From the NCBI GenBank assembly GCA_003153505.1, contig PLZA01000067.1, forward strand, positions 5,229-69,228: 64,000 nt of DNA. The letters are read 5' to 3'. The notes below the pieces were generated by a model, which saw only the letters and a list, made by a program, of their open reading frames with translations, ran no database searches and had not been told where the DNA came from. This document shows positions 4,290-21,395 of this stretch, piece by piece; position 1 is the stretch's first letter, and the number at the start of each line of letters is the position of its first letter. Made by a program: the position numbers and the translations under genes. Source of the DNA: Candidatus Dormiibacterota bacterium (GTDB taxonomy: Bacteria > Chloroflexota > Dormibacteria > Aeolococcales > Aeolococcaceae).

Positions 4290-4591
4290 GGCTCATTCAT
4301 CGGCAACGGTGTCTGCCAGGCTTTCGGCGAGGCGGCGCGACACGCGGTGGTGGCCTTATCGTTCCAAACGGAAGTATCTGCGCCTACTGTGAACCCGAAC
4401 GTGTGGGTGGGTCATGATCTCTGATGCTCGGCGCGTTGTTCATGCTAGTAGTCGGCGTTGATCGTCAGTGGCAGTTCGCTATCACGTATTCGAACGGGCA
4501 GCCTGTCGAAACCTCTCGGGTTCTCGGTGGGGTGCGGGGCGAAGGTGGTAAGCGAGCACCCGTCAGGTGTGATCTCTAATGTTTCGCGAGG

Positions 4592-5449: not shown

Positions 5450-5485
5450 AGTGGAGGCCCAAGTGTCAACAGACTGCGTCAGTTG

Positions 5486-5514
5486 GTAGTGCCTCAGTTT
5501 GACTGAGGCACTAC
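5486..5514. terminator. Perfect hairpin (11-bp stem, 3-nt loop) after the thioesterase gene
   Basis: tagtgcctcagTTTGactgaggcacta immediately 3' of the stop at 5449. Confidence 0.45.
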
Positions 5515-5795
5515 CCAGATTCCGCCTGATGGCACTCACCAGTATCACCATCGTGACCGGCGCCAATATCCTCAAAGGACGGGCCCTGGCTCGAAACGGC
5601 GCGCTCACCCTGGACGACAACCACATCACCCCACCCGCCGGCGCGTGCACGGTTTCCTCGGTCCCGGTTCCCGGCACAGGGGCGGCCTCCGCGCTTCCTG
5701 GCCTTGGCGTTGGCCTGGTGGTTATGGGCGGCCTGATCCTTGCGGTCGGACGCAGACGCGCAAGGGTCGGAACTGAGGCACGCGTTCCCTCGTAG
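5499..5795 (+). pseudogene. C-terminal remnant of a beta-helical surface protein (DUF3494/ice-binding-like last coil) with TM/Arg-rich anchor tail
   Basis: SITIVTGANILKGRALARNGALTLDDNHIT resembles the terminal coil of DUF3494 proteins. Ends with ...ALPGLGVGLVVMGGLILAVGRRRAR (sorting-signal-like). The ORF begins inside the hairpin and has no N-terminal domain. Confidence 0.35.
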
Positions 5796-5803
5796 CTACG
5801 GTG

Positions 5804-6046
5804 GTCGAGCTCTTCCTCCGCGGTCGGCGCGTGGCCAGCCACGCGCGCAGCTACCGGCGCGGCTACAGCACCGACCCGGCGCACATGCCGCCGTCGCACC
5901 GGCGTCATCTGGAGTGGACCCCGGGGCGGATCGGGCGCTAGGCGGAGCAGACCGGCACGGCGACAGCGCAGGTGGTGGCCCACATCCTGACCTCGCGGCC
6001 GCATCCGGAGCAGGGCACGCGCCCTCAGCGGGATCGCAACCTACAT
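5804..6046 (+). pseudogene. IS21-family IstA transposase C-terminal remnant (in-frame stop)
   Basis: VELFLRGRRVASHARSYRRGYSTDPAHMPPSHRRHLEWTPGRIGR*AEQTGTATAQVVAHILTSRPHPEQG matches the conserved IstA C-terminus (…HMPxSHRxxxEWTPxRxxxWAxxIGPxTAxxVxxILxxRPHPEQGYR). Interrupted by a TAG codon. Confidence 0.55.
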
Positions 6047-7321
6047 TTAGGTCACCACCCCTGTCCAGGTCGACAGGTTGACTATCACTGATCCACCCTG
6101 GAAATCACGCTGCCAGTTGCCGTTGCCGTTGAGGTATGCGGCGCCCAGCGCGGCACCAAGGTTCGTGTACATCTCCGGGTAATTGCTCCACAGCATGTCA
6201 CCCGGGCCGAGCGCGCTCGTTCCGTCGGCGTATAGCAGGTAGCTGGCGGTGACGAAGTCGACCAGGGAGGACGGTACGAGTTGGTACGCGCCGACGCGGA
6301 ACCAGCAGAGATCATCGGCGGCCGCACAGGAACGCACCTCATTCTCGAAAGCATTCCAGTCGGCCGCGCTCTGATCGACGGTCGTGTCCCAACTCCATGT
6401 GTACTCGTCCATCAAGCCACTCACAGAGGGAAGCCAGGAGGCCCACAGGCTTGGGTACTTGGTGTCATAGCCGAGGTTGGCGACCGCTAGCTTCCCGGCT
6501 GCCTTGATCTGCCGACCCACCAGCGCGAGCATCGCGGCCATCGCGGTCTGCACGCTGGCATCGGTCGGATGGCTCGGCGACACTCCGTAGGCGTTGGCCG
6601 TGTCGAGCGCGTTGTCCATCTCGACCCCGTCCCAGCCGTGAGCAGCGAGGTCCGCGGCCACGTTGCTCGCCCACTGCTGCTGATACGCGGGGTTGCCATA
6701 GTCCATTTCGAACTGGGTCGGGTAGCCATTCTCCTGCAGCAGGCCGCCCGTGGTGTTGCGCAGGAACCACTCCGGGTGATTCGCCATCGCCCCGCAGTAG
6801 CCGACGCCGGTAGGCAGTTGCGCCTGATCAGCTCCGTCGCTGCATGCGGAGGTGCGCGACGACGTGAGGTCCTTGTATTCAAAGATCTTGACGCTAGGAT
6901 TTGCCGCGCGGATGGCGGGAATCCACGGGTAATCCCACGCGTTCAATGCGATGGCCGCGTAGTGTGGTGCCACTTGCGCCCAGTCGTAGCTCATTCCGTC
7001 CAAGTCCAGTAGGAATGCTTGCGTGTCGCCCGCGGAATTGGCGCCGGGTGTGGGCGACGGTGTAGCTGTCGGGTTCGGCGTCGGCCCCGGCGTGGACACG
7101 GACGTGGGCGTCGGCCCCGGCGTGGACACGGGCGTGGGCGTCGGCCCTGGCGTGGACGCGGGCATGGGCGTCGGCAGCGACCTCTTGTGGTGACCGTCGC
7201 TGTGCTGAGAGCTGGCCAGTGGCGTCGAGGGTACTGCCCGCTGAACTGGGGACGATGCCATTAGCCCCATCCCGACCGTCGCGGAAGCGCATATAAGAAG
7301 TAGACGAGGAATTCGAACCAT
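6047..7321 (-). CDS. Secreted GH114-like (endo-alpha-1,4-polygalactosaminidase-like TIM-barrel) hydrolase with Pro/Thr repeat linker
   Basis: Signal peptide. STPGPTPT tandem repeats. Core with VKIFEYKDL...GWDGVEMDNALD resembling GH114/PelA-hydrolase-type motifs. Confidence 0.55.
   Translation of the reverse strand: MVRIPRLLLICASATVGMGLMASSPVQRAVPSTPLASSQHSDGHHKRSLPTPMPASTPGPTPTPVSTPGPTPTSVSTPGPTPNPTATPSPTPGANSAGDTQAFLLDLDGMSYDWAQVAPHYAAIALNAWDYPWIPAIRAANPSVKIFEYKDLTSSRTSACSDGADQAQLPTGVGYCGAMANHPEWFLRNTTGGLLQENGYPTQFEMDYGNPAYQQQWASNVAADLAAHGWDGVEMDNALDTANAYGVSPSHPTDASVQTAMAAMLALVGRQIKAAGKLAVANLGYDTKYPSLWASWLPSVSGLMDEYTWSWDTTVDQSAADWNAFENEVRSCAAADDLCWFRVGAYQLVPSSLVDFVTASYLLYADGTSALGPGDMLWSNYPEMYTNLGAALGAAYLNGNGNWQRDFQGGSVIVNLSTWTGVVT
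7050..7180. repeat. Tandem 30-bp direct repeats (three full copies plus degenerate flanks) encoding the PT-rich linker
   Basis: gtcggccccggcgtggacacggacgtgggc is repeated at 7080, 7110 and 7140 with 1-3 mismatches. Confidence 0.8.
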
Positions 7322-7615
7322 GGGGTTTTCTCCAGGGGCCCCCGTGCGGCCTTGGGTAGCTCGGCTGTCTCAGTGAGACCCGTGACTTTGCGTGCCCATC
7401 TCGCGATGGGGTTGCCCTTTTCAGGTAGCTGCGACGAGTATGGGACCGCCACGCGGGGTGGCCCCAGGGGTGCGGCCCTCGTCACCCCGACGTCATCGCC
7501 CGTTACGGCATCGTCGTCCAATCGTGACCTGCACGTGACCATATAGGTATGGTGACGATCGTCCAACCAGCCGTGTCCAGTATTACGGCAGCGTCGGTAC
7601 CAGGCGGGCGGGACG

Positions 7616-8752
7616 TCAGACAGCTGTTCGGGGGTCGGGTGCAACGCGTCGGCGATCGGCGGGTACGAGCGACTCGTACAGCGCAGCCAGCGCAAGAGCC
7701 ATGTCGTGTCGACCGTGACGCTGCCACGCCCGACGACGAGCTTCGTCGCCTAGTCGCTGTGCCATCGCAGGATGGTCGAAAAGAAGGACGAGCGCCGCCG
7801 CGATGTCCTCAGGGCGAGCGTTGCATAGCAGGCCGGTGACACCGTCCTCAACGACCTCGTCGATGCCGCCGATACGCACCGCGACCACCGGCACTCCCGC
7901 AGCCATGGCCTCGAGAATCACCAGGGAGCAGCCCTCATAAGTGGACGTGACCAGCACGATACTGGCCCTCGCCAAGAGGTCCGGCACGTCGTGGCGCGGC
8001 CCGAGCAGCACCACTGCCTCGTCGACGCCCAAGGCTGCGGTCAATACCCGCAGCGGGTGTTCCAGGGGGCCGCCGCCGGCTATGGCGAGTCGCATCGCCG
8101 GACGCTGCCGCCTGGCCAGGGCGAGGGCGTGGACGGCGAGCTCGGGACGCTTTTGCGGCACCAGACGACCGACCATCAGAACAAGGTTTGGATCGGGGCT
8201 CCGATCACCAGTCCAGCGCCGCAGATCGATTCCGTTGGGGATGAGGCGATATTGCTCGGCACGGCCGATGCGCAGCCTGAGCCCTTCATGCTGCTCGTGA
8301 CGGGCCACCACGACGATGGCAGCGCAGGCATGCGCCGCCACGCGTTCCAACGCCTCGACCGTCCGGCGGCGCCAACCCGACAGCGCCCAGAACGACCAGG
8401 CGTGTGGGGTGACGACGCAGGATGAGCGCCGCCCTGCGAACAACGCGGACGCCCGGGCCAGCCAGGCGGCCTTGCTGGAGTGAGCATGTATGACGTCGCT
8501 CCTTCGTACCAGTGGGAGGAGCTTGAGCAACCAGGCAACATCGCTCGCGTGAGGTTCACGATGCCGCGTGAACGGGTACAGCCGCACCTCTTCGCGGCCA
8601 ACTAATTGCTCCCAGAGAACTGACTGTGGTGGACATGCGACGGTCACGTTGAAGACCTGCGCGTCGAGCTCGTCCACGATGTCCAGGACGTGGCGGGGAA
8701 CGCCGGCGTCAAGCGGCTGGGCGATGAGTAGCAAACGGATGAGGCGAGCCAT
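7616..8752 (-). CDS. Glycosyltransferase family 4 (GT4, group 1)
   Basis: GT-B fold GT4 N-terminus (PLDAGVPRHVLDIVDEL) and C-terminal EX7E-type region (SIVLVTSTYEGCSLVILEAMAAGVPVVA). Confidence 0.85.
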   Translation of the reverse strand: MARLIRLLLIAQPLDAGVPRHVLDIVDELDAQVFNVTVACPPQSVLWEQLVGREEVRLYPFTRHREPHASDVAWLLKLLPLVRRSDVIHAHSSKAAWLARASALFAGRRSSCVVTPHAWSFWALSGWRRRTVEALERVAAHACAAIVVVARHEQHEGLRLRIGRAEQYRLIPNGIDLRRWTGDRSPDPNLVLMVGRLVPQKRPELAVHALALARRQRPAMRLAIAGGGPLEHPLRVLTAALGVDEAVVLLGPRHDVPDLLARASIVLVTSTYEGCSLVILEAMAAGVPVVAVRIGGIDEVVEDGVTGLLCNARPEDIAAALVLLFDHPAMAQRLGDEARRRAWQRHGRHDMALALAALYESLVPADRRRVAPDPRTAV

Positions 8753-8766
8753 TCGTGCCCTGACTG

Positions 8767-9834
8767 TTAGAGCGGCCGCCGCGTCGCGAGCGATAGCCAG
8801 AGTGAGCGGTAGGCACTGACCATGGCGGCCTCGCTGAACTCATGCTCGAACCGCGCCGCCGCGGCGCCGCCCAGCCGGCATGCCAGGTTGTGATCCGTCA
8901 AGATCGTGGCGATGGCCGTGGCTAGCGCATCGGCGTCACCGGACGGCACCAATAGGCCGTCGACCCCATCGCGGATCAGCTCGCGGAGACCGCGGACCCG
9001 CGTGGCCACCACCGGCCGGGCAGCGCTCATGGCCTCGAGGACTACGAGCGGCAATCCCTCCCAGTCAGAAGGCTGCACAACCACGTCGGCAGCGCCGAGT
9101 ATTGCCCGGGCGTCGGTGCGTGCACCCATAAGTCGCACGCGCCCGCTCAGGCCCAGCTCCTCGATCTGCCGCTCCAGGTTGGGGCGGAGCGTCCCGTCGC
9201 CCACGATGACCAGCGCGGCGTCAGGAAGGCGGACCATTGCGCCGATGGCGAGGTCGTGGCGCTTCTGCGGCATCAGCCGACCGGCGGCGACGATCAGTCG
9301 CAACCCTGACGCCAGCCCCCATTCGCGGCGGAGCGCTGCGATGGCCGCGGGTCGCGGACACGGGCCGACGCCGTTGACGATTGTTCTCAGCGGCTCGGTG
9401 CCGTGCGCGCGCAGCGTCGCGGCGACCCCTGCGCCGCATGCAACGACGGGCAACCCCGTACAGCGGAGCAACCGCGACGTGGCAATATCATCGGCTGGAC
9501 GGACACCGTGAATGGTGACCATTCCCGGCCGCACGGCCCCACGCAGCGTCGCCAGTGCAGTGATCGCGGCCATTCCGGGGTTGTGGGCATGCACTACGTC
9601 GGGATTCCAGTCGCGAACGTGGTCGCGGAGTCGCCAGGACGCCGCCAGAACCTGAGACGGGCGGCGGTGCAGCATGGGGAGTGGTAGGTGTGGGACGCCG
9701 TCGAGCAGAACTGTGGCTCCGCTACAGGCTATGGCGAACTCATCACCTGCCGTCAGGCCTGCCGTGCACAGCTGACGCACCACCTGCTCGGCGCCGCCGC
9801 TGCCGAATTCCTGGATTACGTGGAGGATGCGCAT
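8767..9834 (-). CDS. Glycosyltransferase family 4
   Basis: MRILHVIQEFGSGGAEQVV... and EGLPLVVLEAMSAARPVVAT motifs. Confidence 0.85.
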   Translation of the reverse strand: MRILHVIQEFGSGGAEQVVRQLCTAGLTAGDEFAIACSGATVLLDGVPHLPLPMLHRRPSQVLAASWRLRDHVRDWNPDVVHAHNPGMAAITALATLRGAVRPGMVTIHGVRPADDIATSRLLRCTGLPVVACGAGVAATLRAHGTEPLRTIVNGVGPCPRPAAIAALRREWGLASGLRLIVAAGRLMPQKRHDLAIGAMVRLPDAALVIVGDGTLRPNLERQIEELGLSGRVRLMGARTDARAILGAADVVVQPSDWEGLPLVVLEAMSAARPVVATRVRGLRELIRDGVDGLLVPSGDADALATAIATILTDHNLACRLGGAAAARFEHEFSEAAMVSAYRSLWLSLATRRPL

Positions 9835-10928
9835 AGCTGCTCCCGGTAGAGGTCGAGCATCTCGGTGCCCGCCTCGCTGGCATCGAAGCGCTCGGCGATG
9901 CGGCGGATCCCGGAGCGCCCCATGGCAGCGCGGCGCTCCGGATCGTCCACGAGGGCAGCCAGGGCATTGGCCAACCCGTCGACGTCGTCAGGTTCGACGA
10001 GCAGGCCGGTGACCCCATCCTGCACGAGCTCCGCGATACCGCCAACCCGGGTCGCGACGACTGGAAGCCCGATCGCCATCGCCTCGAGAATGGTGATCGG
10101 CAGATTCTCGCCTCGCGATGGGAGGACGAAGAGGTCGGCCTCGAGAAGACGGTCGCGTACCGAGGGGACCTGGCCGTGGAAGGTGGCGTTGAGTCGGTGC
10201 ATGCGCGCGCGGCGCTCGAGGTCTGGGCGGAGTGAACCGTCGCCGTATATGTCGAGATGAATAGGCGGGGCTTGCTCGGCAAGACGGGCGCAGGCCTCGA
10301 CCAGCACGTCAATCCCCTTATGCCTCTCGAGCCGGGCAACGGCCACCAGTCGAACCGGCTGGTGCGGAGGTCCCGGCTCCCACCGCCGGATGTCGATCCG
10401 CGACGGCAGAACGTGGATGCGCCGCGTTGGGAAGCCGTGCGCTGCGAGGAAGCTAGCGAGTGTCTGCGACGGGACCACAAGGGCTCCGAGGCGAACCAGG
10501 AGGGCCTCGACCCGGAGGTGACCGTGGAGCAGCCAGGCGCTGCGAACCATGGGCCCCACCGGCCGGGCTCCGGGCCGGCCGGGAAGGCCGACGAGTTCCT
10601 CGGGGAGCCCGTGGTAGGTGTGGACCAGCCTTGCTCCCAGCGCACGTGCGGCCGCCCCACAGAGCAGGAGTGCCCGACGATCCTGGGTGTGGACGATGTC
10701 AGCGCCGCGTAGCCGCGGCCACATGCGCACAGCCCGTGCGATGTCTGCTTTGTTGCGGAGTGGCGCGACCTCCGCGTCGAGTCCGAGATCGCGCGCACGC
10801 GCGGCAATGTCAGAGTCGCCGCACAACAGGCGCACATGCGCACCCGCGTGGGCAACCGCAGGTGCGAGGTTGAGCATGTGCGAGACTGGGCCTCCCTCGG
10901 TGAGGGTGCTCACATACACGACTTTCAC
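9816..10928 (-). CDS. Glycosyltransferase family 4
   Basis: GTG start giving VKVVYVSTLTEGGPVSH.... Sugar-binding motif ENLPITILEAMAIGLPVVAT. 4-nt overlap with the upstream wzy-like stop. Confidence 0.85.
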   Translation of the reverse strand: MKVVYVSTLTEGGPVSHMLNLAPAVAHAGAHVRLLCGDSDIAARARDLGLDAEVAPLRNKADIARAVRMWPRLRGADIVHTQDRRALLLCGAAARALGARLVHTYHGLPEELVGLPGRPGARPVGPMVRSAWLLHGHLRVEALLVRLGALVVPSQTLASFLAAHGFPTRRIHVLPSRIDIRRWEPGPPHQPVRLVAVARLERHKGIDVLVEACARLAEQAPPIHLDIYGDGSLRPDLERRARMHRLNATFHGQVPSVRDRLLEADLFVLPSRGENLPITILEAMAIGLPVVATRVGGIAELVQDGVTGLLVEPDDVDGLANALAALVDDPERRAAMGRSGIRRIAERFDASEAGTEMLDLYREQLCASST

Positions 10929-12205
10929 GGAGCGGGGTCGACAGAGGCGACGTCGGGGCTCGCCTTCGCCTCCTGCCACAGGCACGTGGCGAACGCGCCC
11001 ATCAGCCAGAGCGGCGCGTAGTACTGTTCGGAGAGCGTCAGCGCCGCCGTGACGGCAACGATCATGCTGGCAGTCGCGGCGATGGCGAACGAAGGCGGCC
11101 CCACCTGTCGTCGCATGGCGATGTGGAGCCGGCGAAAGCTCGTCAGCACATAGGCTAGGAGCAGGGCGAGCGCAGGTAACCCGACCTCGGCACCGACTTC
11201 AAGGTACGTATTGTGGACCACGGTGGGGTCGTCGGGGGTGGGCGGCCGATTGTCGACCGCGGCCGTGTAGAGCTGAAAGTTTCCGGGTCCAACTCCAATG
11301 AGAGGATGCGCCGCAATGAGCAACAGCGCCGATCGCCAGGCGTCGAAGCGATGATCAACATTGCTTGCGGCCACGATCCCCTTATCTCGAAGCGCAAGGC
11401 TGATCTGCGCTTGTTGAGTAACGGCGACGACGCCGATGCAGGCCGCGACAATCATCGAGGATGCGAGGACCGCACGGAGCTGACTCCGGTGCGTGACCAC
11501 CATCCAGACCAAGGCGCATCCCAGCCCCACGGCGGCACCACGTGACAGGGTCAGCGCATCGGCGATGCCGATCACCGCGACCAGGGTGAGCACGACTAAT
11601 CGCGGGACCCCGCGGCGGCGCAGTAGCCACAGCGTGAGTGGCAGCGTAGTGGAGAGAATGTATGCGAGATCGTTAGCGTCGCCGTAAGTCGGCGTCGCAC
11701 GCGTGTCGAAGCCGATGAGCAGGTTGCGTACGGCCAACACGCCGGCGATCGCGCTGGCCACCGAGAGCACCCAGACAAATCGCTCCAGGGTGCGATGGTC
11801 ACCAGCGAACGCGGTGAGAACGAAATACAAACCGGCGTAGCTGACGTAGCGAACCGTTACTAGCGCGGCGTCGCCCAGGGACGTCGCGGCCACGTCGGCG
11901 ACGAGGATCAAGCTCAGGATCCCAAGCACCATCGCGTGAGTCGCATCGAGACGAAGCCGTCTGCGCCGCGTGGCCAGCTGAATTGCAAAGCTTGCGAAGC
12001 ACAGGGCGCCGGCGAGCTTGACGACGGTGAGCTGGGGGTTGCCGAGAGACACGGAGTACTCCAGCGGAACTGCGGCCGCGAAGAGCAGGAGGGCGAGGTC
12101 GAGTCGCACAAGAGCGGCGACAAGCACCCCGCCGGCGACGGCGCCAGGGATCACTAGGAGAGGCCACCACGTCGTCGCGACAGCCACGGCAGCCGCCGCG
12201 GCCAT
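10925..12205 (-). CDS. O-antigen ligase/polymerase family (Wzy_C) membrane protein
   Basis: About 10-12 TM helices. Wzy_C-type loop motif (TLSRGAAVGLGCALVW). Start uncertain (ATG at 12205 or a GTG at about 12286). Confidence 0.7.
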   Translation of the reverse strand: MAAAAAVAVATTWWPLLVIPGAVAGGVLVAALVRLDLALLLFAAAVPLEYSVSLGNPQLTVVKLAGALCFASFAIQLATRRRRLRLDATHAMVLGILSLILVADVAATSLGDAALVTVRYVSYAGLYFVLTAFAGDHRTLERFVWVLSVASAIAGVLAVRNLLIGFDTRATPTYGDANDLAYILSTTLPLTLWLLRRRGVPRLVVLTLVAVIGIADALTLSRGAAVGLGCALVWMVVTHRSQLRAVLASSMIVAACIGVVAVTQQAQISLALRDKGIVAASNVDHRFDAWRSALLLIAAHPLIGVGPGNFQLYTAAVDNRPPTPDDPTVVHNTYLEVGAEVGLPALALLLAYVLTSFRRLHIAMRRQVGPPSFAIAATASMIVAVTAALTLSEQYYAPLWLMGAFATCLWQEAKASPDVASVDPAP

Positions 12206-12282
12206 CACGCCAGCGGTGACCGGTGCGGTCCACAGCCCGACTCGGAGACGGTCGCGGGGCGGCTCGGTGACTGTTACGACGG

Positions 12283-13818
12283 TCACGGGGCGGACTGTGG
12301 CGTTACGGTTCCGCTTGCGGTGGTGCCCGGTCTTGGCATCGGAGGCGGCTGTTCGACTATCGACTCCGTCGACAACGCCGCGATGGAGGTCGGTGCCGGT
12401 CGCTGCGAGGTTTCCGGGCCCGCGAGAATCCGCCCAGGTATCACCTGTCGTAGGCAGAGTAAGGCGGTGCGCAGCAGGATGAGGACGTCCCCGCTCAGCG
12501 TCCAAGTCGCCAGGTAGTAGTTGTCAAACCTGGCTCGATCCGCGACCGAGGTGTCACCACGCAGACCATGCACCTGAGCCCAGCCCGTGATCCCAGGGCG
12601 GACTCGGTGGCGGCCCGCGTATTCGGCGATCGACTCCGTGAAGATGTCGGCGAACCTGCCGCGCTCCGGTCGCGGCCCCACCAGCGACATGTCACCCCGT
12701 AGCACGTCGACAAGCTGGGGCAGCTCGTCGAGACCCGTGCGGCGCAGGAAGCCGCCCAGCTTGCCCACTGTCGGGTCATGGGCAACAGACCACGTGCGGT
12801 CACCATCGTGGTTGGGGAGGAGGGTGCGGAACTTCAGCATAGTGAAAGGGCGAGCGTCGAGGCCGATCCGGTACTGGCGGAAGATCACCGGCCCAGGGCC
12901 ACTCAAACGGATCACCGCGGCAACGACGGCCATCACCGGCGACAGCAGGATCAGCGCGGCCATCGAGATGACCACGTCGAAGCCGCGCTTCACCACCCGT
13001 GCCGAGCGACGGGACAGCGAACGAGGCACGAGTGTGAGCGGGATGCCCCATAGCTCGTCATGGAGGCGCGCATCGAAGCCGAGCTCGAACAGACGGGGAA
13101 CAACGTAAATCTCAACGGAAAGCCGTTCGCAGGCGCGCAGCAAGCCCACCACCAACGCCTCCGGTGTGGACCAGAAAGCCAGGACGATGCGAGTGACCCG
13201 TTCACGCTTCACAACAGCTTCGAGTTCGTCCAGACATCCCAATCGTGGAACGATGGAGCTGGCGACGCCGGCGTCATCATCGACGAGTCCGGTCGGCCGC
13301 ATCCCGCACTCGGGGTGCTGGAGCATGGCGCGAATCAGTCGCGCGGCGATCTCACCTGAACCCACGATGAGGGTGGGATGGCGGAGCCAGTCGCGTCGAT
13401 AGGCACCGCGTACAGCACCACCGACGAGTCCACGCGCAACCAGCAGGGTCAGGACGACGGTGACGCCGAGACCAGCGAGATCACTGGTACTGCGCCCGGG
13501 GTCGAACGGCACGATGAGCAGGAGCATCGCGCCAACTCGCGCAGCGACAGGAACGACCGCATCATCCAGTCGCGGGGTTACCTGAGCCGCGGCGCGGCGG
13601 TCCAGACCTGTCAGCGAAGCGAGAGCGCCGATCGCCCACAATACCCAGATGAAGGTGAGGCGTCTCTCGGCCGCTAGAACGGCAAAGAACGCCAGCGCCT
13701 CGGACGTGCTGTACGCGACGTGACCGATCAGGAGTGCTGAAACGCGCGGGCCATAATGCGCTGCGAGCGACGTGTCAGCGTGCGCTGGTGTTAGGCCCCC
13801 TCCATCAACCTTCCCCAT
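12283..13818 (-). CDS. Undecaprenyl-phosphate sugar phosphotransferase (WbaP/EpsL-type polyprenyl glycosylphosphotransferase, Bac_transf)
   Basis: N-terminal TM bundle plus C-terminal catalytic domain (KRGFDVVISMAALILLSP...MLKFRTL...DELPQLVDVLRGDMSLVGPRPE). Confidence 0.9.
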   Translation of the reverse strand: MGKVDGGGLTPAHADTSLAAHYGPRVSALLIGHVAYSTSEALAFFAVLAAERRLTFIWVLWAIGALASLTGLDRRAAAQVTPRLDDAVVPVAARVGAMLLLIVPFDPGRSTSDLAGLGVTVVLTLLVARGLVGGAVRGAYRRDWLRHPTLIVGSGEIAARLIRAMLQHPECGMRPTGLVDDDAGVASSIVPRLGCLDELEAVVKRERVTRIVLAFWSTPEALVVGLLRACERLSVEIYVVPRLFELGFDARLHDELWGIPLTLVPRSLSRRSARVVKRGFDVVISMAALILLSPVMAVVAAVIRLSGPGPVIFRQYRIGLDARPFTMLKFRTLLPNHDGDRTWSVAHDPTVGKLGGFLRRTGLDELPQLVDVLRGDMSLVGPRPERGRFADIFTESIAEYAGRHRVRPGITGWAQVHGLRGDTSVADRARFDNYYLATWTLSGDVLILLRTALLCLRQVIPGRILAGPETSQRPAPTSIAALSTESIVEQPPPMPRPGTTASGTVTPQSAP

Positions 13819-14017: not shown

Positions 14018-14911
14018 ATGACGCAGGCAGCCGGGTCGACCACGCGCGGCGCTCGGCTTCTCGAGTTTGACGCAGCGGCCTTGGCCGCGGCGTACCGTGC
14101 GCACGCGCCGATCGCGGTCGAACATGGACTGGCCGACCAACCACTCCTAACCCTCGAGGCGATCGCCGACCTCGCCGACTGGCTGCCCCGCGACTGCGTC
14201 ATCTGCGACACCCCCGACCAGCCGCTTCTCGTCCCCGAGGGCGGGCCGCCGCGAGGATCCGAGCCGCGCCCCGGCGACGTCATTCGCCACCTCGAAGTGC
14301 GCCGCTCGTGGCTGACACTACTCAACATTGAGCAGCAACCCGCTTATCGCGAGCTCATGGACGCGTGCCTCGACCAGATCGCGGCTGTCGTCGAGCATCG
14401 CCCTGGCGACATGCGGCGCAGGGTGGGCTTCATCTTCGTGTCATCGCCGCTGTCGGTGACCCCCGCGCACTTCGACATCGAGCACAGCCTTCTGCTCCAG
14501 ATCTCAGGGCAGAAGGAACTCACGGTGGGGCACTTTGCCACAGCTGCCGTCGAACGGAGGGAGTGTGAGCGCTACTGGGAGGGGTCGCACGGCCGCGTCG
14601 AGGATCTGCCACTCGTCGAAGTCACTCACGACATGGTTCCCGGCCGCGGTGTCTACTTACCCCCCATCCGCCCTCATTGGGTCATCAACAGCGATGCAGT
14701 GACACTTTCGATGACGCTCACCTTTTTCAGCGCCGATTCCGAGCGCGACCAGTTCGTCGAGGCTTTCAACGCCCGACTACGGCGATTCCGCGTCCATCCC
14801 CGGCCACCAGGGAGGTCGCTGGCTGTCGACGAAGTCAAGGCGACTGCGATGCGGACCTGGGGGCTGCGGAGGCGGTTGACCGGCCGGCATGAGGAATCGA
14901 CTCACTACTAA
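14018..14911 (+). CDS. Cupin-like/JmjC-type (Cupin_8) putative hydroxylase
   Basis: ATG at 14018 with GGAGGAGG RBS. Double-stranded beta-helix signature with His-x-Asp/Glu (HFDIEHSLLLQISGQKELTVGHF). Confidence 0.55.
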   Translation: MTQAAGSTTRGARLLEFDAAALAAAYRAHAPIAVEHGLADQPLLTLEAIADLADWLPRDCVICDTPDQPLLVPEGGPPRGSEPRPGDVIRHLEVRRSWLTLLNIEQQPAYRELMDACLDQIAAVVEHRPGDMRRRVGFIFVSSPLSVTPAHFDIEHSLLLQISGQKELTVGHFATAAVERRECERYWEGSHGRVEDLPLVEVTHDMVPGRGVYLPPIRPHWVINSDAVTLSMTLTFFSADSERDQFVEAFNARLRRFRVHPRPPGRSLAVDEVKATAMRTWGLRRRLTGRHEESTHY

Positions 14912-14915
14912 CTAA

Positions 14916-15989
14916 CTAACTAAGCCGAGATGGGTGACGGCGGGCAGCGATAGAACGCAGCCGGCGCCGGGTCCGCCCCGCGAGGTGGCGTCCGCGCTCG
15001 GCGGCGAAGTCGATATGCAGAGCGACCTGCGCCGTCGACCCGACGGCGCAGCGCAGCCGCCACAACTCGCGTCGCTGGTCGGCGAACAAGGTCTTATACG
15101 CCTCGTCACCGCGCAAGAGATCGGCGTCGAGCAAACCCCGACGCGCAGCGTCGTCGATTACGCGAGCGAGTAGCACGATGCCCGCCCCCCGCCAGCGCCG
15201 GGAGGGGATCCGGCCGCTCTGGTAGTAGCTAAGGTGTCCCGCGACCTCGAATGAGACGACGATGGCGCCAGGCTCGTCCCCAGCGCGCAAGACGTTGAAG
15301 ACCACCTCCCTTCGGGCGGCGGCGGCGCGGCAGACGGTCGCGAACCGGCCGAAATCGCCAAGGAAGCTGGACGCCTTACCCCAGCGCTGTGCATGGAAGC
15401 GGTGCAAGACGCGCAGCCCGAGCTCGACATCATCGACGCGCTCCACGATGCAGCTACCGGTATCCCGGACCAGGCGGCGTTCCGTCCGGTGCACAAGACG
15501 GCGCAAGCTAGTCCGTTCCAAGAATCGACTGCTGAGTGCGACCCAGGGCGCGACGGCGCTCCGCTCACAGCGGAAACGGAGGGGCAGGGCGGCTGCGACG
15601 AGCGAGTCAGTGACCATGCCGTCGAGATCCAGAAGCCGGTCGCCTCGCCTAGTCAGCCAAGCGCCCAGAACCGCCGCCACCTCAGCCCTCATCTCGGGGG
15701 CGGCGACGGCGTCGAGGTGATCGGGACACAATGCTCCGGCGCCGAGCAGACGCAGCCGCTCAATGCCGAGATGACGGTCGCGCTCGAGAGCCAGACCGCC
15801 CACCAAGCGGTCGCGCTGAAGGACGAGCACGATGCAGGGGCGCGAGCCGGCCGCCGTGTCGAGCCACCACGAACGCAGGAAGGGCGAGGGGATGGGGAGG
15901 CTCTCGACCAACGAGTCCCAAGCATCGGCGTACGCACCGAGCATGGTTGTGACGCTCACGCGCATCGCAGTCGTGTCCTCTGGCACCAT
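14916..15989 (-). CDS. GNAT acetyltransferase, FemAB/CelD(BcsL)-like (Acetyltransf_6)
   Basis: Length and C-terminal half (…VVFNVLRAGDEPGAIVVSFEVAGHLSYYQSGR) typical of the CelD/FemAB-like GNAT family found in polysaccharide and cell-wall loci. Confidence 0.6.
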   Translation of the reverse strand: MVPEDTTAMRVSVTTMLGAYADAWDSLVESLPIPSPFLRSWWLDTAAGSRPCIVLVLQRDRLVGGLALERDRHLGIERLRLLGAGALCPDHLDAVAAPEMRAEVAAVLGAWLTRRGDRLLDLDGMVTDSLVAAALPLRFRCERSAVAPWVALSSRFLERTSLRRLVHRTERRLVRDTGSCIVERVDDVELGLRVLHRFHAQRWGKASSFLGDFGRFATVCRAAAARREVVFNVLRAGDEPGAIVVSFEVAGHLSYYQSGRIPSRRWRGAGIVLLARVIDDAARRGLLDADLLRGDEAYKTLFADQRRELWRLRCAVGSTAQVALHIDFAAERGRHLAGRTRRRLRSIAARRHPSRLS

Positions 15990-16029
15990 ATGGACTCTGC
16001 CTCCCCGCCCATCGTATCGCGAGTCCCAT

Positions 16030-16761
16030 ATGGACCCCAGGAAGGTCGCGAGCTATGATCGCGACCTCTCGGATACTCGGACGGCCAAGGGGCTCGAATG
16101 GATGCTCGAGCGCCGCCTCATCGACGGTTTGCTCGGCGACCATCCGCACGCACAGCGTGCCGTCGACTTCGCCTGCGGCACTGGGCGCATCCTTGGCTTT
16201 CTGGCTGAGCGATTCCCCGAGGTGATCGGGGTCGACGTCAGCGCCGCGATGATCGAAGTAGCACGTGAGCGCTGCCCCGCGGCGCGTCTCGTCGTGGGGG
16301 ACGTTACAGTCAATCCCGGGCTACTGACGGAATCCGCTGATGTGGTCACGGCTTTTCGCTTCCTGCTCAACGCCGAGCCGCCATTGCGCGCCGCCGCCCT
16401 CGACTGGATGCGTGACCGTCTCCGCCCTGAAGGGCTCCTCATCGTCAACTTCCATCTCAATCCGCGCAGCCTGCGCGGGTGCTACCTGCGCCTGCGCCAC
16501 GCGTCCGACGTCACGATGATGGGGGTGGGCGAAGCCCGTGCGCTGCTTGCCAGTCACGGCCTGACCGTACGCAAGGTTCGTGGGTACAGCTACCTTCCCT
16601 ACCGCCGTGACGGCTCGCGGCTCCTCCTTCCTCGAGTACGCCGAAGCGTCGAGGGGTGGCTGGCCCGAGTCGATCGGCTCACGGGGTGGGGCAGCTGCTT
16701 CTTGCTCCTCGCCGAGCGCAGCCGGGACACGGTATCAACCGGGCCGGCCGGCGAGGGCTGA
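16030..16761 (+). CDS. Class I SAM-dependent methyltransferase
   Basis: Motif I (VDFACGTGRILGFLAE) and motif II (LVVGDV). ATG at 16030. Confidence 0.8.
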   Translation: MDPRKVASYDRDLSDTRTAKGLEWMLERRLIDGLLGDHPHAQRAVDFACGTGRILGFLAERFPEVIGVDVSAAMIEVARERCPAARLVVGDVTVNPGLLTESADVVTAFRFLLNAEPPLRAAALDWMRDRLRPEGLLIVNFHLNPRSLRGCYLRLRHASDVTMMGVGEARALLASHGLTVRKVRGYSYLPYRRDGSRLLLPRVRRSVEGWLARVDRLTGWGSCFLLLAERSRDTVSTGPAGEG

Positions 16762-18156
16762 GATGAGCGGGACAAGGTTCTCGTGTGCCCACCTTGAGCC
16801 CCGGCGATCACCCTCTGGTCCGAGGGCGTGGACGACGATGGCGGCTACAACAGAGGCCGCCCGCAGAGCTGGATCGGCCGCCGGCCACGGGACGCCTCCG
16901 AGCGAGGGCGGCGCCGTCAATGCGCGGGGCTCTCGCACCGCGCGCGCGGCGGCCACGCCGATGGGGATACGCGAGCCGATCGCGAGCCGATACAACTCGA
17001 GGAACACGGCATCAAGGCCGGCGGGCGCGGCGGCTCGCCCCTGCTCCCAGTCGATGACCACTGTTGACCCTCGCCCGAGGACGATGTTTCCTGGCCAAAA
17101 ATCGCCGTGGCACCAGGACGTGGGAAGACGGAACTCCTCAATCGGTAGGAGGGCGGCCTCGATGGCATCGGCATCCTCACCGAACTGGTCTATCCCCCGG
17201 GTCCACGCATGTGCCCATCCTGGACCGGCGTCCGCGGTCGGAGCGGTGGCCGCGAGAAGCCGGGCCACTTCGTGGGCTGCCTTCCAGGTGGATCCCCCAG
17301 TGCGCCATCGCCGTCCGCCAGGGCTGAGGTGACCCTGGTGCCAGGTTTCGGCGCGCCACTCGAGGCCGTGCGTCACACCGACCGCCAGCTCGCGCGGCAT
17401 GTGCGCGTGGAGGTCAGGCGACAGAAGGGCGTCGTCGATACTCGCGAGCACCTGGCGCTGCCGCGCCAGCCGGGCGGTGCCGAGCTCCGTGAGACACAGC
17501 CGAAGAGCCGCCTCCTCGCGGGCCAGCCCGACTCGGACGATGATGTTGTGGCTTCCGCTGACCAGGACGCCACGCAGCGTGGCCCTGCTTCCGACGGCAG
17601 CGCCGAGGTCGGCGACGACGTCGTCGATCAGGCCCGGGCCGTCCGGCTCGATCGCGATTCCAGCGCGACCGCTCAACCGCCAGAGCACGGACGTGGCCAG
17701 TCGTTGCCGTATCCACTGACCTCGCGCATCCGTCGAGGCCGGCCATCCCTTGCGCAGCAGGCGCTCAACCGAGTCGGCACGCGGGTAGGGGACCGTGTCA
17801 TGGCGGCGCCGCGCGGGAACGATGGCCGCGCGGCGTCCCCCCGGGCGAAGCGCCGCGGCCAGAGCCGTGGGGTCTGCTCGGCGTTCGTCCGCCACCAGCA
17901 GCGCCAGAGCACCGTCCGGCAGCGGCCAATGCCGCCCATCCCAGCACATTCCGCGGGCCACTCCCACAAGCGCAGCGCGGTCTGCGCTCACGGTGATTGC
18001 CGACGGGTACGAGCGACGGAAGGCTGCGGCAGTGCCGGGCTCCAGGTCGACGAGGGCGACAAGCCCTGACATGGCAGCTGGAAGAAACACCCGCCAGCTC
18101 CCGTTGCGCTCGCTGGGGTGACGGGGGCTCTCCGCACCAACGGTTTTCGCCATCAT
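16735..18156 (-). CDS. Phosphotransferase (APH/choline-kinase-like) family kinase with N-terminal extension
   Basis: Brenner motif HGDFWPGNIV plus downstream IDWE (D-x-E). Its 3' end converges on and overlaps the methyltransferase 3' end (16735-16761). Confidence 0.65.
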   Translation of the reverse strand: MMAKTVGAESPRHPSERNGSWRVFLPAAMSGLVALVDLEPGTAAAFRRSYPSAITVSADRAALVGVARGMCWDGRHWPLPDGALALLVADERRADPTALAAALRPGGRRAAIVPARRRHDTVPYPRADSVERLLRKGWPASTDARGQWIRQRLATSVLWRLSGRAGIAIEPDGPGLIDDVVADLGAAVGSRATLRGVLVSGSHNIIVRVGLAREEAALRLCLTELGTARLARQRQVLASIDDALLSPDLHAHMPRELAVGVTHGLEWRAETWHQGHLSPGGRRWRTGGSTWKAAHEVARLLAATAPTADAGPGWAHAWTRGIDQFGEDADAIEAALLPIEEFRLPTSWCHGDFWPGNIVLGRGSTVVIDWEQGRAAAPAGLDAVFLELYRLAIGSRIPIGVAAARAVREPRALTAPPSLGGVPWPAADPALRAASVVAAIVVHALGPEGDRRGSRWAHENLVPLISALAGRPG

Positions 18157-18245
18157 GGATAGCCCGTCACAATCAGGTCCACGCCAAATATGGCAAGCTC
18201 CGGAGCGATGTCCAAATTGCGGCGCCGATTCCGAGCGACTCGCTG

Positions 18246-18944
18246 ATGATCGACCTGCCCGACCTTATACTCACCGTGTGGCGCCACCGCGTGATGGCGC
18301 TGGCGACATTGGTTGCCGTCCTGGCGGCGACATCGGTCTACATCGTCACCCAGAAACCGGTCTACCGGTCCACCGAAAGCCTGCAGCTGTCGAGCACCGA
18401 CCCAACCTTCCTCAGCGAGGTCAACACACTGACGCCGCTGTACTCCGAACTGCTCACCGCACAGGCCACGCTCACCCTGGCACAGGCGAGTTTGGGTTCG
18501 ACGCCGCTGGCCAGCATCGCGGTCCGCACCTTCACGGACTCGCCGGTCGTTGACCTCGACGCCAGCGGTGGCTCCGCGGATGTTGCTCAACGTTCCGCGA
18601 CGGCCGACGTCAGCGCTCTGGCCGATCGCCTCGCTTTTCAATCGGCGCTGGGCGTGAGCGGCGTCACGCTCGCCGTGATCGATGGTCCCAGCCAAGCCGA
18701 CATCGTCTGGCCGCGCCCCGCGCTGAGCCTCGGTGTCGCCGCCATCGTCGGCATCCTTCTAGGTGTCGCGGTGTCTTGGCTGGTTGACGCTCGGTGGCGG
18801 CGGCTGCCGGCACTGGCAGTCGCACCATCGACAGCATCCACTGCTCGCGATGCATCAGGCCCAGCGTCGGAGGATACAACCGTCACAATCGGCGACATTA
18901 CCCGACGCTCCCAACGTCGCGCACGCAACACCCATGCCCGATGA
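18246..18944 (+). CDS. Wzz-like polysaccharide chain-length determinant (PCP) protein, no kinase domain
   Basis: Wzz N-terminal motif (IDLPDLILTVWRHRVMALATLVAVLAATSVYIVTQKPVYRSTESL) and a second TM helix near the C-terminus. Confidence 0.7.
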   Translation: MIDLPDLILTVWRHRVMALATLVAVLAATSVYIVTQKPVYRSTESLQLSSTDPTFLSEVNTLTPLYSELLTAQATLTLAQASLGSTPLASIAVRTFTDSPVVDLDASGGSADVAQRSATADVSALADRLAFQSALGVSGVTLAVIDGPSQADIVWPRPALSLGVAAIVGILLGVAVSWLVDARWRRLPALAVAPSTASTARDASGPASEDTTVTIGDITRRSQRRARNTHAR

Positions 18945-19124
18945 CGTCGCGGCCCCCGCGGGCACCCAAAGGTAGCGTCATCGGGGCATGATGCCGCCTC
19001 GAAGACAGTCCTCGAGATGCCGCTGCGAAACCGTCCGGGCATGCACGAAGGCGTGTCGAGGCGGCACGGGTCAGGGACGCGGCCGGTGAACACCGATCTG
19101 GCACGTCGGGCTACACGGGGCACC

Positions 19125-20579
19125 ATGTGGTCGGCTGCCGGGACGTGGCTGAGTCGCGTGTCCGTTCTCGTCGTCATCGTCGTGCTCGCGCGACACCTCG
19201 ACGCTCGCGAGTTCGGAGTCCTCGGGGTGGCCACACTCGCCGCGAACGTCGCTCTGCAGCTCGATGACGGCGGCCTGAGTGATGCGTTGGTGTGGTGGCG
19301 GGGGCTCGTTCGCGAGGCAGCCGAGACCGCACTCCTCGGATGCGTGGCACTTGGCGCGGCGATCGCTGGGGTTCTTGCTCTGGCTGCTCCGGCCATCGCC
19401 GCCGTCTTCCACGCGCCCGATGCGACGCCGCTGCTGCGCGTCTACGCCATCGCGGTTCTCGCGGATGCCATCTCGGGCGTTTACCTGGGGATGCTCACAC
19501 GTGAGTTGGCATTCCGCGCAAGGTTCTTCCCCGAGGTGGTGCCGGCATTGTGTGGGGGCCTGGTGACCGTGGGGTTCGCCCTGAACGGCGCCGGGGTCTG
19601 GTCGTTGGTCATCGGCGACGTTCTCTGCAGCGGGCTCCGGCTCGTCATCGGGTTCCTCATCGTCGGGCGGCGGATGGTTCCACGCTGGCACCGAGAAGTG
19701 GCTTTGGGATTGTGGCGCTACGGGCGCGCCGCTTTGTCCGGGTCATTCCTCGAGTTCGCATTGCAGAACGTCGACTACGCTCTCGTCGGCCTTCTTCTCG
19801 GCCCGGTCGCGCTAGGCCTGTACACCATCGCTTTCCGAGTAGCCATCCTCCCGTTTCTGATCGTGACGTATGTCATCGCCGGAGTCACATTCCCGCTCTA
19901 CGCGCGGATCACAACCGACAGTGCCGCAATTCAGCGGGTGATGCAGCTCACGATGCGAGCAAACTGCAGCCTGGTGTTTCTCATGGGCGCCGGGCTGGCG
20001 ACGCTGGCTCCTTTCCTCGAAGTGCTGGGCCTCCGCTGGCAACCTGCAGTGCCGGTAGCGCGGCTCCTCGGCGTTTACATCTGCTTCCGCTCAGCGGCCT
20101 TCATGCTGAGCATGCTCCTGCGCGTTGTCAGTCCCACGGCGAACGCACTGCTGCGCGGAACGTGGGTGCTGTTGCTGATTGCGCTCATCGCCACGGTCGG
20201 GCGGACCGGCATCACCGCCGTCGCGGCCATCCAGGTCGTCGTGGCTGCAGGGATGCTCGGCGCATCTCTCGTTGTAGCACGGAGACTGGCTGGAATCTCG
20301 ATCGCCACGCTTGTGGTGGATATGGCTCGCGCCGGCATCGCCGCGCTGATTGCAGCTGCTGCCACGATCGCATTGCACCAAGAAGTCGGCGCGCTGTCGA
20401 ATCCCACGTCCATCGGTGCTCTGTTGGTCCTTGGCGGCACCTTCTGTGGAGTGTACATACTCACGCTGGCGTTAATCATGCCTGGCGTCGGGGGCGATCT
20501 GCGCCGACTGCGAGCTGTGGCGGGCCGCACCGCACCGGGAGCCTCCGTTACTGCCCCAAGCACCCTTCCGTCGCAATGA
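19125..20579 (+). CDS. Wzx-type flippase (MOP superfamily polysaccharide biosynthesis protein)
   Basis: About 12-14 TM helices. Polysacc_synt N-terminal signature (LARHLDAREFGVLGVATLAANVAL). ATG at 19125. Confidence 0.8.
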   Translation: MWSAAGTWLSRVSVLVVIVVLARHLDAREFGVLGVATLAANVALQLDDGGLSDALVWWRGLVREAAETALLGCVALGAAIAGVLALAAPAIAAVFHAPDATPLLRVYAIAVLADAISGVYLGMLTRELAFRARFFPEVVPALCGGLVTVGFALNGAGVWSLVIGDVLCSGLRLVIGFLIVGRRMVPRWHREVALGLWRYGRAALSGSFLEFALQNVDYALVGLLLGPVALGLYTIAFRVAILPFLIVTYVIAGVTFPLYARITTDSAAIQRVMQLTMRANCSLVFLMGAGLATLAPFLEVLGLRWQPAVPVARLLGVYICFRSAAFMLSMLLRVVSPTANALLRGTWVLLLIALIATVGRTGITAVAAIQVVVAAGMLGASLVVARRLAGISIATLVVDMARAGIAALIAAAATIALHQEVGALSNPTSIGALLVLGGTFCGVYILTLALIMPGVGGDLRRLRAVAGRTAPGASVTAPSTLPSQ

Positions 20580-20627: not shown

Positions 20628-21395
20628 ATGAGGCCGGCGGTCCGGGCGGCCGTTCGGGCGTGGGCGCGTGTGCCGCACCCGCGTGGACCCGGCCTGATGG
20701 TGCTCGGCTACCACCGCGTGGCCGAGCGCGACGACGACATGACTGTGCGTCCCTCGACGTTCGCGGCACACGTCGGTCGACTGGTCGCATACCGCAGGGA
20801 GGTGCCCGTCGTCGACCTCGACCGCGCTATTCGCAACCAACCTGACGGTTGGCCACGACGCGCCGTCGCGATCACCATTGATGACGCCTGGATGGATGTG
20901 CACACAAACGGTCTTCCCGTTTTGGTCGACGCGAAGATTCCCGTGACGATCTACGTTCCAAGCGGGCTGCTAGGCGCTCGCGATCACATGACAAGCACTC
21001 AGGTGTGTGAGTGGATTGATGCGGGGATGACAGTTGGTGGTCACTCGCGCAGTCACGCAGACCTGCGTAGCTGCAACGACGCCGAGCTAGAACGCGAGAT
21101 TCGCGGTTGCCGCGAAGACTTGGAGGATCTGCTCGGCGTCCCGGTGACGAGCTTTGCCTACCCGTTTGGCCACCTCGACCGGCGCGTGCGTGACGCCGTT
21201 GCCGCGGCCGGATTCACAAGTGCCGTATCCACCCGGCGTGGGTGGACACGCCCCGGCACTGACCCGCTGCGCATCCCGAGGTGCATTGTCGAAGACTTCG
21301 ACGCCGTCACGTTCCGCGCCGCGATCAAAGGCGGCCTGAATGTGCTGCGCGGACCAGATGCCGTGCGCGGCCGCTTCGGACGATCCGGGCCGTAG
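20628..21395 (+). CDS. Polysaccharide deacetylase (CE4, NodB homology)
   Basis: NodB motifs TIDDAW (TFDD-like), HSRSHADL (HxxxH), FAYPFG. Confidence 0.85.
   Translation: MRPAVRAAVRAWARVPHPRGPGLMVLGYHRVAERDDDMTVRPSTFAAHVGRLVAYRREVPVVDLDRAIRNQPDGWPRRAVAITIDDAWMDVHTNGLPVLVDAKIPVTIYVPSGLLGARDHMTSTQVCEWIDAGMTVGGHSRSHADLRSCNDAELEREIRGCREDLEDLLGVPVTSFAYPFGHLDRRVRDAVAAAGFTSAVSTRRGWTRPGTDPLRIPRCIVEDFDAVTFRAAIKGGLNVLRGPDAVRGRFGRSGP

Follow-up and report, generated by a model that had tools for sequence, protein, structure and literature searches.

In the 64,000-nucleotide stretch of contig PLZA01000067.1 (Candidatus Dormiibacterota bacterium) analysed here, called the window below, two convergent genes encode a kinase-like protein of the APH family and a class I S-adenosylmethionine (SAM)-dependent methyltransferase. 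They lie within a Wzx/Wzy-type polysaccharide locus, and in 40 of the 56 related loci that can be assessed the methyltransferase gene adjoins that of the kinase. Our tentative reading, held with somewhat less than even confidence, is that the pair is a conserved cytoplasmic tailoring module which would phosphorylate and methylate the lipid-linked repeat unit in a Wzx/Wzy exopolysaccharide pathway. The first-pass annotation of this DNA is partly borne out: the two activities do form a conserved pair dedicated to a Wzx/Wzy locus, but its suggestion of a chain-terminating logic like that of E. coli WbdD is not supported.

Conservation of the gene pair

As first annotated, the two genes lie tail-to-tail with overlapping 3' ends, an arrangement borne out by the listing of open reading frames (ORFs), by reading of the sequence and by Pfam (Table 1). 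Both proteins exactly match called genes in public assemblies. The overlap codes for the variable C-terminal tail of the methyltransferase and is specific to one clade: the gap is also zero in loci L071, L073 and L075 and amounts to 16–33 bp in L001, L005, L072 and L074. In L001, a syntenic metagenomic locus, the methyltransferase is broken into two ORFs of 106 and 132 amino acids (aa; L001:11460-12385, minus strand) by either a frameshift or an assembly error. Some public (JGI) annotations start the kinase at Met70, which yields 404 aa, a difference that concerns positions 17947-18156 (minus strand) of the window. A start at Met70 would halve the conserved N-terminal domain described below. 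The 473-aa start is favoured here since conservation begins at about residue 15.

Related loci for comparison, 65 in all, were drawn from public genomes and metagenomes; 56 of them are assessable for the neighbourhood of the methyltransferase. Adjacency of the two genes is found in two gene orders and orientations and down to a kinase identity of 33 %, which is strong evidence for their functional coupling. The window and eight loci with a kinase at least 60 % identical form type A, and all are syntenic with the window. In each of them the methyltransferase is convergent and lies 0–33 bp from the 3' end of the kinase, and a Wzz-like gene is found in divergent orientation 44–143 bp upstream of the kinase wherever the upstream flank exists, a count that leaves out L006 (a 2.4-kb fragment). 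In the approximately 31 loci of type B, where identity falls to 31–37 % for the kinase and about 50 % for the methyltransferase, the order is Wzx, methyltransferase, kinase and GNAT, all co-directional with gaps of 0–114 bp, in an apparent operon that begins with wzx. Here the methyltransferase lies 21–114 bp upstream of the kinase on the same strand; the GNAT gene, where detected, follows 0–72 bp downstream and a JmjC-like gene, where detected, a further 1.1–2.6 kb on.

The 12 loci of type C, from Nocardioides and relatives, have the kinase fused or directly adjacent to Wzx, with a JmjC-like gene and a GNAT gene about 2 kb upstream; no class I methyltransferase detectable by the hidden Markov model of the window family was found within 10 kb of the kinase. 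Type D consists of four loci (L002, L009, L010 and L109) in which methyltransferase, GNAT and JmjC-like gene were all searched for and not found. The kinases of L009 and L010, which that of L109 matches like L010, carry an N-terminal extension of 250–450 aa. Extended kinases, which form another clade of the family, are encoded at L009:8747-11365 and at about L010:8930-11437 and include proteins P0147, P0149, P0150, P0152-P0154, P0156 and P0158. The extensions of the L009/L010 type are homologous to each other, match no Pfam model and have no counterpart in the window.

Altogether 16 loci contain the kinase without the methyltransferase, and the former is thus independent of the latter. The JmjC-like oxygenase and the GNAT protein accompany the kinase in types A, B and C, i.e., more widely than the methyltransferase does, with the GNAT gene adjoining the kinase in types A and B. 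What is conserved is therefore better described as a tailoring module of three to four genes. Aminoacylation, hydroxylation and phosphorylation would be one possible, if speculative, sequence of its reactions.

The name given to the kinase in source annotations, “aminoglycoside phosphotransferase family kinase”, would suit a pair of coincidental neighbours made up of an antibiotic-resistance-type APH and a housekeeping methyltransferase. This idea is scarcely credible and is effectively refuted by the conserved linkage. In addition, no resistance model of NCBIfam is matched, the kinase family is embedded in polysaccharide loci, and only in these, wherever the flank suffices, and in one clade it is fused to Wzx. 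A role in aminoglycoside resistance was rejected on the same grounds, i.e., the lack of a matching resistance model and the conserved polysaccharide context. Close homologues acting on an unrelated known substrate, which the first-pass annotation had held would speak against a role on the glycan, were looked for and none was found.

An orphan family of APH-like kinases

In Pfam, the kinase matches the APH family (PF01636, E 3e-7, 30.9 bits against a cut-off of 23.2) over residues 200-374 only, and no equivalog model of NCBIfam is reached. The family is small, with 24 close homologues among 5.8e9 clustered proteins and 40 representatives below 1e-30 among 1.84e9 proteins. One homologue is labelled Candidatus Dormibacteraeota and the matches in genomes are Actinomycetota. 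Judged by these relatives, the family forms an orphan branch of the APH kinases, found in polysaccharide loci and not seen elsewhere. The catalytic loop, H350-G-D352-x-W-P-G-N357, is kept in 35 of 35 diverse members, and so are its residues H350, D352 and N357; the downstream metal-binding D369 of the I-D369-W-E motif is kept in 34 of the 35. Both counts take in fused and extended forms. With this set of conserved residues the 473-aa protein is proposed to be an active APH-fold kinase. It is also rich in tryptophan (17 residues, 3.6 %), and 11 of these residues are conserved in at least 32 of the 35 relatives, a richness which would fit a carbohydrate-binding surface.

The closest folds in the PDB to the full-length AlphaFold2 (AF2) model, as found by Foldseek, are APH(9), fructosamine-3-kinase, MphH, APH(4), NahK and LicA (probability 1.00, E about 1e-5 to 1e-3). 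The template modelling (TM) scores of 0.3–0.4 on the query and 0.4–0.6 on the target are modest because the model is mediocre. The likeness to these small-molecule kinases consists in the fold and the HxDxxxxN...D motif. It is a match at the superfamily level only, and the window protein differs from them by an extra N-terminal domain and its genomic context. Sequence searches against solved structures with the kinase, the family profile and the profile of the N-terminal domain gave marginal matches only; a profile search with a more diverse kinase alignment added at least one sequence. An NCBIfam scan of ten of the nearest relatives outside the kinase family returned no informative names. Phosphocholine-type decoration by a LicA-like kinase and a phosphoethanolamine N-methyltransferase was another candidate; it was rejected as the locus has neither a LicC cytidylyltransferase nor a LicD transferase and matches to phosphoethanolamine methyltransferases are weak.

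A degenerate methyltransferase fold at the N-terminus of the kinase

The region upstream of the catalytic domain matches no methyltransferase model of Pfam. Modelled alone by AF2, about residues 15–140 give a confident structure (predicted local distance difference test score, pLDDT, 84.5; predicted TM score 0.78) with a strand-helix order like that of the class I methyltransferase fold and a two-strand hairpin at its end. SAM-dependent methyltransferases make up 49 of the top 50 Foldseek matches of this model in the PDB (TM scores of 0.5–0.6 on the query), and hhalign aligns the domain with the family of the neighbouring methyltransferase at a probability of 69–72 %. At the position of motif I the window protein has D-L-E-P-G-T-A, and the glycine-rich loop is not conserved in the family. 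Since the glycine loop that binds SAM is lost, the domain, as modelled, is most likely a non-catalytic methyltransferase relic. A conserved stretch of the domain, W-D-G-R-x-x-P-L-x-x-G-x-x-x-L-L-V-x-D, is one which, compared by eye only, we take to resemble the Methyltransf_11-type motif G-D-A-x-x-L-P-F-x-D-x-S-F-D-L-V.

The methyltransferase and its nearest solved relatives

The separate methyltransferase is matched above the gathering scores by Methyltransf_25, _11 and _12 of Pfam (E 1.8e-15 to 2.7e-12; for Methyltransf_25, E 1.8e-15 and 57.9 bits against a cut-off of 27). Its SAM motifs are intact, with D46-F-A-C-G-T-G52 (motif I), D69 and D91 invariant among 26 homologues. No equivalog of NCBIfam is reached. 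The top PDB matches of the family profile are CalS10, TylM1 and DesVI (E 7e-15 to 1e-13), with generic methyltransferases lower down, and the alignment with these three enzymes extends into the N-terminal region at low identity. This affinity hints that the acceptor may be a sugar amine rather than a phosphate.

CalS10, TylM1 and DesVI are N-methyltransferases of nucleoside diphosphate (NDP)-amino sugars. Together with the presence of NahK among the structural matches of the kinase, and of a DegT aminotransferase and a PIG-L deacetylase in some related loci, they bring up the possibility that both proteins act on precursors: an anomeric sugar kinase of the NahK/AmgK kind and a TylM1/DesVI-like methyltransferase would then jointly supply an unusual activated sugar. 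We consider this rather improbable. CalS10, TylM1 and DesVI belong to antibiotic deoxysugar pathways in which they have dehydratase and aminotransferase partners, whereas Pfam detects no nucleotidyltransferase, 4,6-dehydratase or aminotransferase in the locus of the window. Moreover, sequence comparison shows no significant similarity of the kinase to NahK or AmgK, and a soluble salvage kinase would hardly be expected to be fused to Wzx.

Likeness to and difference from WbdD

The methyltransferase-kinase WbdD of E. coli O9/O9a (PDB 4AZS series) is a protein of 708 aa in which the methyltransferase occupies residues 1–210, the kinase residues 211–459 and a coiled coil residues 460–708 (PMC3482155). 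The reference used here is the 708-aa protein of E. coli HS, serotype O9, encoded between wzt and wbdA (L070:17966-20092). In Pfam it matches Methyltransf_31, _25 and _11 as well as APH, and at the level of Pfam labels the analogy with the window pair is a fair one. The analogy has also gained support from a side that the first-pass annotation did not foresee, for in the models the kinase gene alone displays the domain order of WbdD, i.e., a methyltransferase-fold domain directly N-terminal to a kinase-like domain. The setting in a polysaccharide locus and the linkage of kinase and SAM-methyltransferase activities are further points in common.

These resemblances would be accounted for if the pair controlled chain length, the kinase and the methyltransferase jointly capping the glycan with methyl-phosphate at its non-reducing end and thereby stopping its elongation. 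The order of the two folds recalls residues 1–459 of WbdD, both systems match APH and Methyltransf_25/_11, and a methyltransferase with intact SAM motifs, predicted to be active, is tightly linked to the kinase. Yet a role in chain termination is very unlikely. Profile comparisons by hhalign give a probability of 0.9 % for the kinase family against the whole of WbdD, 30 % for the two kinase domains (restricted to the region of the catalytic loop) and 0.2 % for the N-terminal domain against the methyltransferase domain of WbdD; the stand-alone methyltransferase reaches 58–70 % with that domain through generic SAM-binding motifs only. In the structure comparison that the first-pass annotation had called for, the domain order is shared, but neither the full-length nor the N-terminal model has WbdD among its top 50 Foldseek matches. 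The kinase also lacks a C-terminal coiled coil, residue 473 being the end of the helices of the kinase C-lobe. Besides, the methyltransferase resembles CalS10, TylM1 and DesVI and not a phosphate methyltransferase, and the 16 loci with the kinase alone do not fit a two-enzyme cap.

The export pathway argues in the same direction. The locus has Wzx, Wzy and a polysaccharide co-polymerase (PCP) and, as searched up to 36.6 kb of the window, no ABC transporter of the Wzm/Wzt kind, in agreement with its initial classification as Wzx/Wzy-type. In such pathways the PCP sets the length of the chain, which grows at its reducing end in the periplasm or at the exterior of the cell. Membership of the WbdD family was consequently rejected, on account of the missing specific profile similarity, coiled coil and ABC transporter. 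The architectural likeness is real and best seen as analogous. Where WbdD has a coiled-coil ruler and a Src-like kinase, the window has no ruler and an APH-like kinase; its fused methyltransferase fold is devoid of the glycine-rich SAM loop, and the methyltransferase predicted to be active is encoded by a gene of its own.

Association with the Wzx flippase

In relatives of about 915–980 aa, the module of methyltransferase fold and kinase precedes a Polysacc_synt_3 (Wzx) flippase in the same polypeptide. At least six Nocardioides genomes, several of them independent, encode this fusion in a single uninterrupted ORF; those of the cultured isolates Root1257, strain 503 and N. lijunqiniae are among them. 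The loci concerned are L011-L013 and L016-L019 (e.g., L011:9908-12805 in Nocardioides sp. Root1257), and proteins P0161, P0163, P0165 and P0170 are examples. The window itself has no such fusion, its kinase and wzx genes being distinct and separated by 861 bp. A literature search for the kinase family, kinase-Wzx fusions or Nocardioides glycopolymers found nothing relevant. A simple Kyte-Doolittle hydropathy scan reveals no transmembrane segment in the kinase, the methyltransferase, the GNAT or the JmjC-like protein, which are therefore taken to be cytoplasmic. Together with the Wzx fusion and the wzx-led operon of type B, this suggests that the module acts in the cytoplasm beside the flippase.

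A kinase attached to a flippase is not without precedent. Mycobacterial MurJ/MviN is a flippase of the MOP family with an intracellular kinase-homology domain (PMC6180346, citing Gee et al. 2012). The two cases share a kinase-fold domain physically joined to a MOP-superfamily flippase of lipid-linked glycans in Actinomycetota (for the window family, in the fused relatives) and differ in that the kinase module is N-terminal to Wzx here and C-terminal to MurJ there. The window family, moreover, keeps all catalytic residues, also in the fused forms, and is APH-like with a methyltransferase-fold domain.

This precedent, and the Nocardioides fusions themselves, would be in keeping with a regulatory kinase that controls the export or polymerisation machinery and not the glycan, be it as a regulatory domain attached to the flippase or as a protein kinase. 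In one variant it would phosphorylate, for example, the Ser/Thr-rich cytoplasmic tail of the CpsC-like PCP in place of a missing bacterial tyrosine kinase (BY-kinase): the locus has a short PCP and, according to Pfam, no BY-kinase, and the kinase gene divergently adjoins that of the PCP in all type A loci with an upstream flank. A regulatory role nevertheless seems unlikely. The catalytic residues are invariant, unlike those of a pseudokinase, and the fold is closer to small-molecule kinases than to protein kinases. Pfam finds no ParA/CbiA domain (the BY-kinase P-loop) in the kinase, and L002 holds this kinase plus a separate Wzz-ParA BY-kinase, so that the former is not a simple replacement for the latter. 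Lastly, tight linkage with methyltransferase, GNAT and JmjC genes fits chemical modification better than regulation.

A tentative model for the pair

The model that we tentatively favour, modification of the lipid-linked repeat unit, is set in soil Actinomycetota-like bacteria that would make a Wzx/Wzy-dependent exopolysaccharide. At the inner face of the membrane and in close association with Wzx, the kinase would phosphorylate the undecaprenyl-diphosphate (Und-PP)-linked repeat unit or else a substituent that this unit had received from the co-conserved GNAT and JmjC enzymes. In loci that have the methyltransferase, this enzyme may methylate the same Und-PP-linked unit; candidate acceptors are the newly added phosphate, an amine of a sugar and a hydroxyl. 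The decorated unit would then be flipped by Wzx and polymerised by Wzy. Polymerisation by Wzy follows flipping, takes place outside the cytoplasm and extends the chain at its reducing end, so that the marks should be found on every repeat unit and not at the terminus. They would thus be a decoration, possibly also an export signal, rather than a chain-terminating cap.

Several observations weigh against this model. The canonical beta3 lysine gives way to conserved arginines (R208 in 33 and R219 in 34 of the 35 relatives), although many enzymes of the APH/choline-kinase type have an arginine here. The full-length AF2 model has a pLDDT of only 65, due to the shallow alignment, and the region of the catalytic loop is poorly modelled. 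In the type D loci the kinase lies several kb from the closest assembly gene. The nearest solved relatives of the methyltransferase act on NDP-amino sugars and not on lipid-linked glycans or phosphates. Finally, the proposed substrate is inferred, and all homologues of the kinase are uncharacterised.

A more specific version of the model, which we regard as distinctly improbable, is that flipping is coupled to modification, with the (methyl)phosphate tag put by the kinase on the finished Und-PP-linked unit being the feature that Wzx recognises. In this version the methyltransferase would dock on the vestigial methyltransferase-fold domain of the kinase, so that a WbdD-like enzyme would be rebuilt in trans. 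If this were true, completion, decoration and export of the unit would be coupled, as they are by the WbdD cap and the carbohydrate-binding module of Wzt, and the Nocardioides kinase-Wzx fusions would represent a hard-wired form of this coupling.

The surrounding polysaccharide locus

The polysaccharide locus extends from 6.0 to 21.4 kb of the window as delimited by Pfam, and the genes beyond 21.4 kb belong to unrelated metabolism. Synteny of the block at 6047-13818 is kept in L001 and L005. An ORF of 519 aa without a Pfam match lies at the border of the polysaccharide locus (4445-6004, minus strand). Farther away, a DDE transposase (DDE_Tnp_1 and DUF772; 31957-32928, plus strand) is located between amino-acid/oxidoreductase genes and an oligopeptide ABC permease operon and is unrelated to the finding described here. 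An anti-phage “conflict system” was considered and rejected, as the weak Pfam matches to TCAD9 and GT4-conflict either fail to reach the curated cut-offs or come second to standard kinase and GT4 families.

Table 1. Positions of the gene pair, its domains and the neighbouring polysaccharide genes in the window
Feature	Position	Strand	Description
Methyltransferase gene	16030..16761	+	ATG 16030, TGA 16759-16761; 243 aa; class I SAM-dependent, CalS10/TylM1/DesVI-like
Kinase gene	16735..18156	-	ATG 18156, stop 16735-16737; 473 aa; degenerate methyltransferase-fold domain and APH-fold kinase domain
Overlap of convergent 3' ends	16735..16761	.	27 bp; from direct sequence reading
APH/protein-kinase-like catalytic domain	16738..17589	-	About residues 190-473
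Kinase N-terminal domain	17737..18114	-	About residues 15-140; class I methyltransferase-like Rossmann fold, degenerate SAM loop
JmjC/cupin-like putative Fe(II)/2-oxoglutarate oxygenase	14018..14911	+	297 aa; co-conserved with kinase
FemAB/CelD-like GNAT (Acetyltransf_6)	14916..15989	-	357 aa; Pfam PF13480 6.3e-16; co-conserved with kinase
Short CpsC-like co-polymerase (Wzz N-terminal domain)	18246..18944	+	Pfam Wzz 2.4e-7; 2 transmembrane-like segments
Wzx (MOP-family) flippase	19017..20579	+	Pfam Polysacc_synt_3 1.1e-50; NCBIfam MOP flippase
CE4 polysaccharide deacetylase	20628..21395	+	Pfam Polysacc_deac_1 6.1e-21
Rest of assembly locus	6047..13818	-	GHL15 hydrolase-like protein, three GT4, Wzy polymerase, Bac_transf initiating phosphoglycosyltransferase; Pfam

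The four tailoring genes of the region 14018-18944 are tightly packed and alternate in orientation (+, -, +, -). The stop codons of the JmjC-like and GNAT genes are 4 bp apart and the start codons of the GNAT and methyltransferase genes 40 bp apart. No intrinsic-terminator-like site was found in the interval from 13.7 to 19.1 kb, the gene overlap included, against about two expected from shuffled sequences. The kinase and PCP genes are divergent, with start codons about 90 bp apart, and a promoter-like site for the kinase is seen at 18214-18187. The PCP has a Ser/Thr-rich C-terminal tail and is without a BY-kinase partner anywhere in the locus.

The JmjC-like protein matches JmjC_2 of Pfam below the cut-off in the window (3.5e-4) and more clearly in L011 (3.5e-8). 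Residues of the H-x-D...H type are seen in its translation, and a weak PDB match is YxbC, a putative asparaginyl hydroxylase. The GNAT protein is labelled “CelD/BcsL family acetyltransferase” in one source. The hydropathy scan detected neither a signal peptide nor a transmembrane segment in the CE4 deacetylase, in contrast to the GHL15 protein (6047-7321), whose N-terminus bears a hydrophobic segment. On this sequence evidence the lipid-linked unit may be a cytoplasmic substrate of the deacetylase, which could generate a sugar amine there.

Significance

Kinase-fold enzymes of the cytoplasm that add phosphate to a sugar of a lipid-linked glycan prior to export are known from the core of lipopolysaccharide, where WaaP, WaaY and KdkA fulfil this function. 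They belong to other Pfam families (Kdo/WaaP), use lipid A-core and not Und-PP-linked units as substrate, and have neither a methyltransferase-fold domain nor a flippase fusion. Glycan kinases of lipid-linked glycans (WaaP, KdkA and WbdD) and methyltransferases in polysaccharide loci are thus known kinds already. The kinase family described here is uncharacterised; it has a probable relic of a methyltransferase domain, is confined to Wzx/Wzy loci and in one clade is joined to the flippase.

Polysaccharide biology has yet to explain how Wzx recognises a complete repeat unit and by what means decoration in the cytoplasm is coordinated with export. The kinase family, including the flippase fusion of cultured Nocardioides, offers a concrete and genetically tractable handle on both. 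It also indicates that a methyltransferase-plus-kinase architecture like that of WbdD can arise outside ABC-transporter pathways. Abundant soil Actinomycetota are predicted to produce phosphorylated and/or methylated exopolysaccharides, and such polymers would affect charge, metal binding and soil aggregation.

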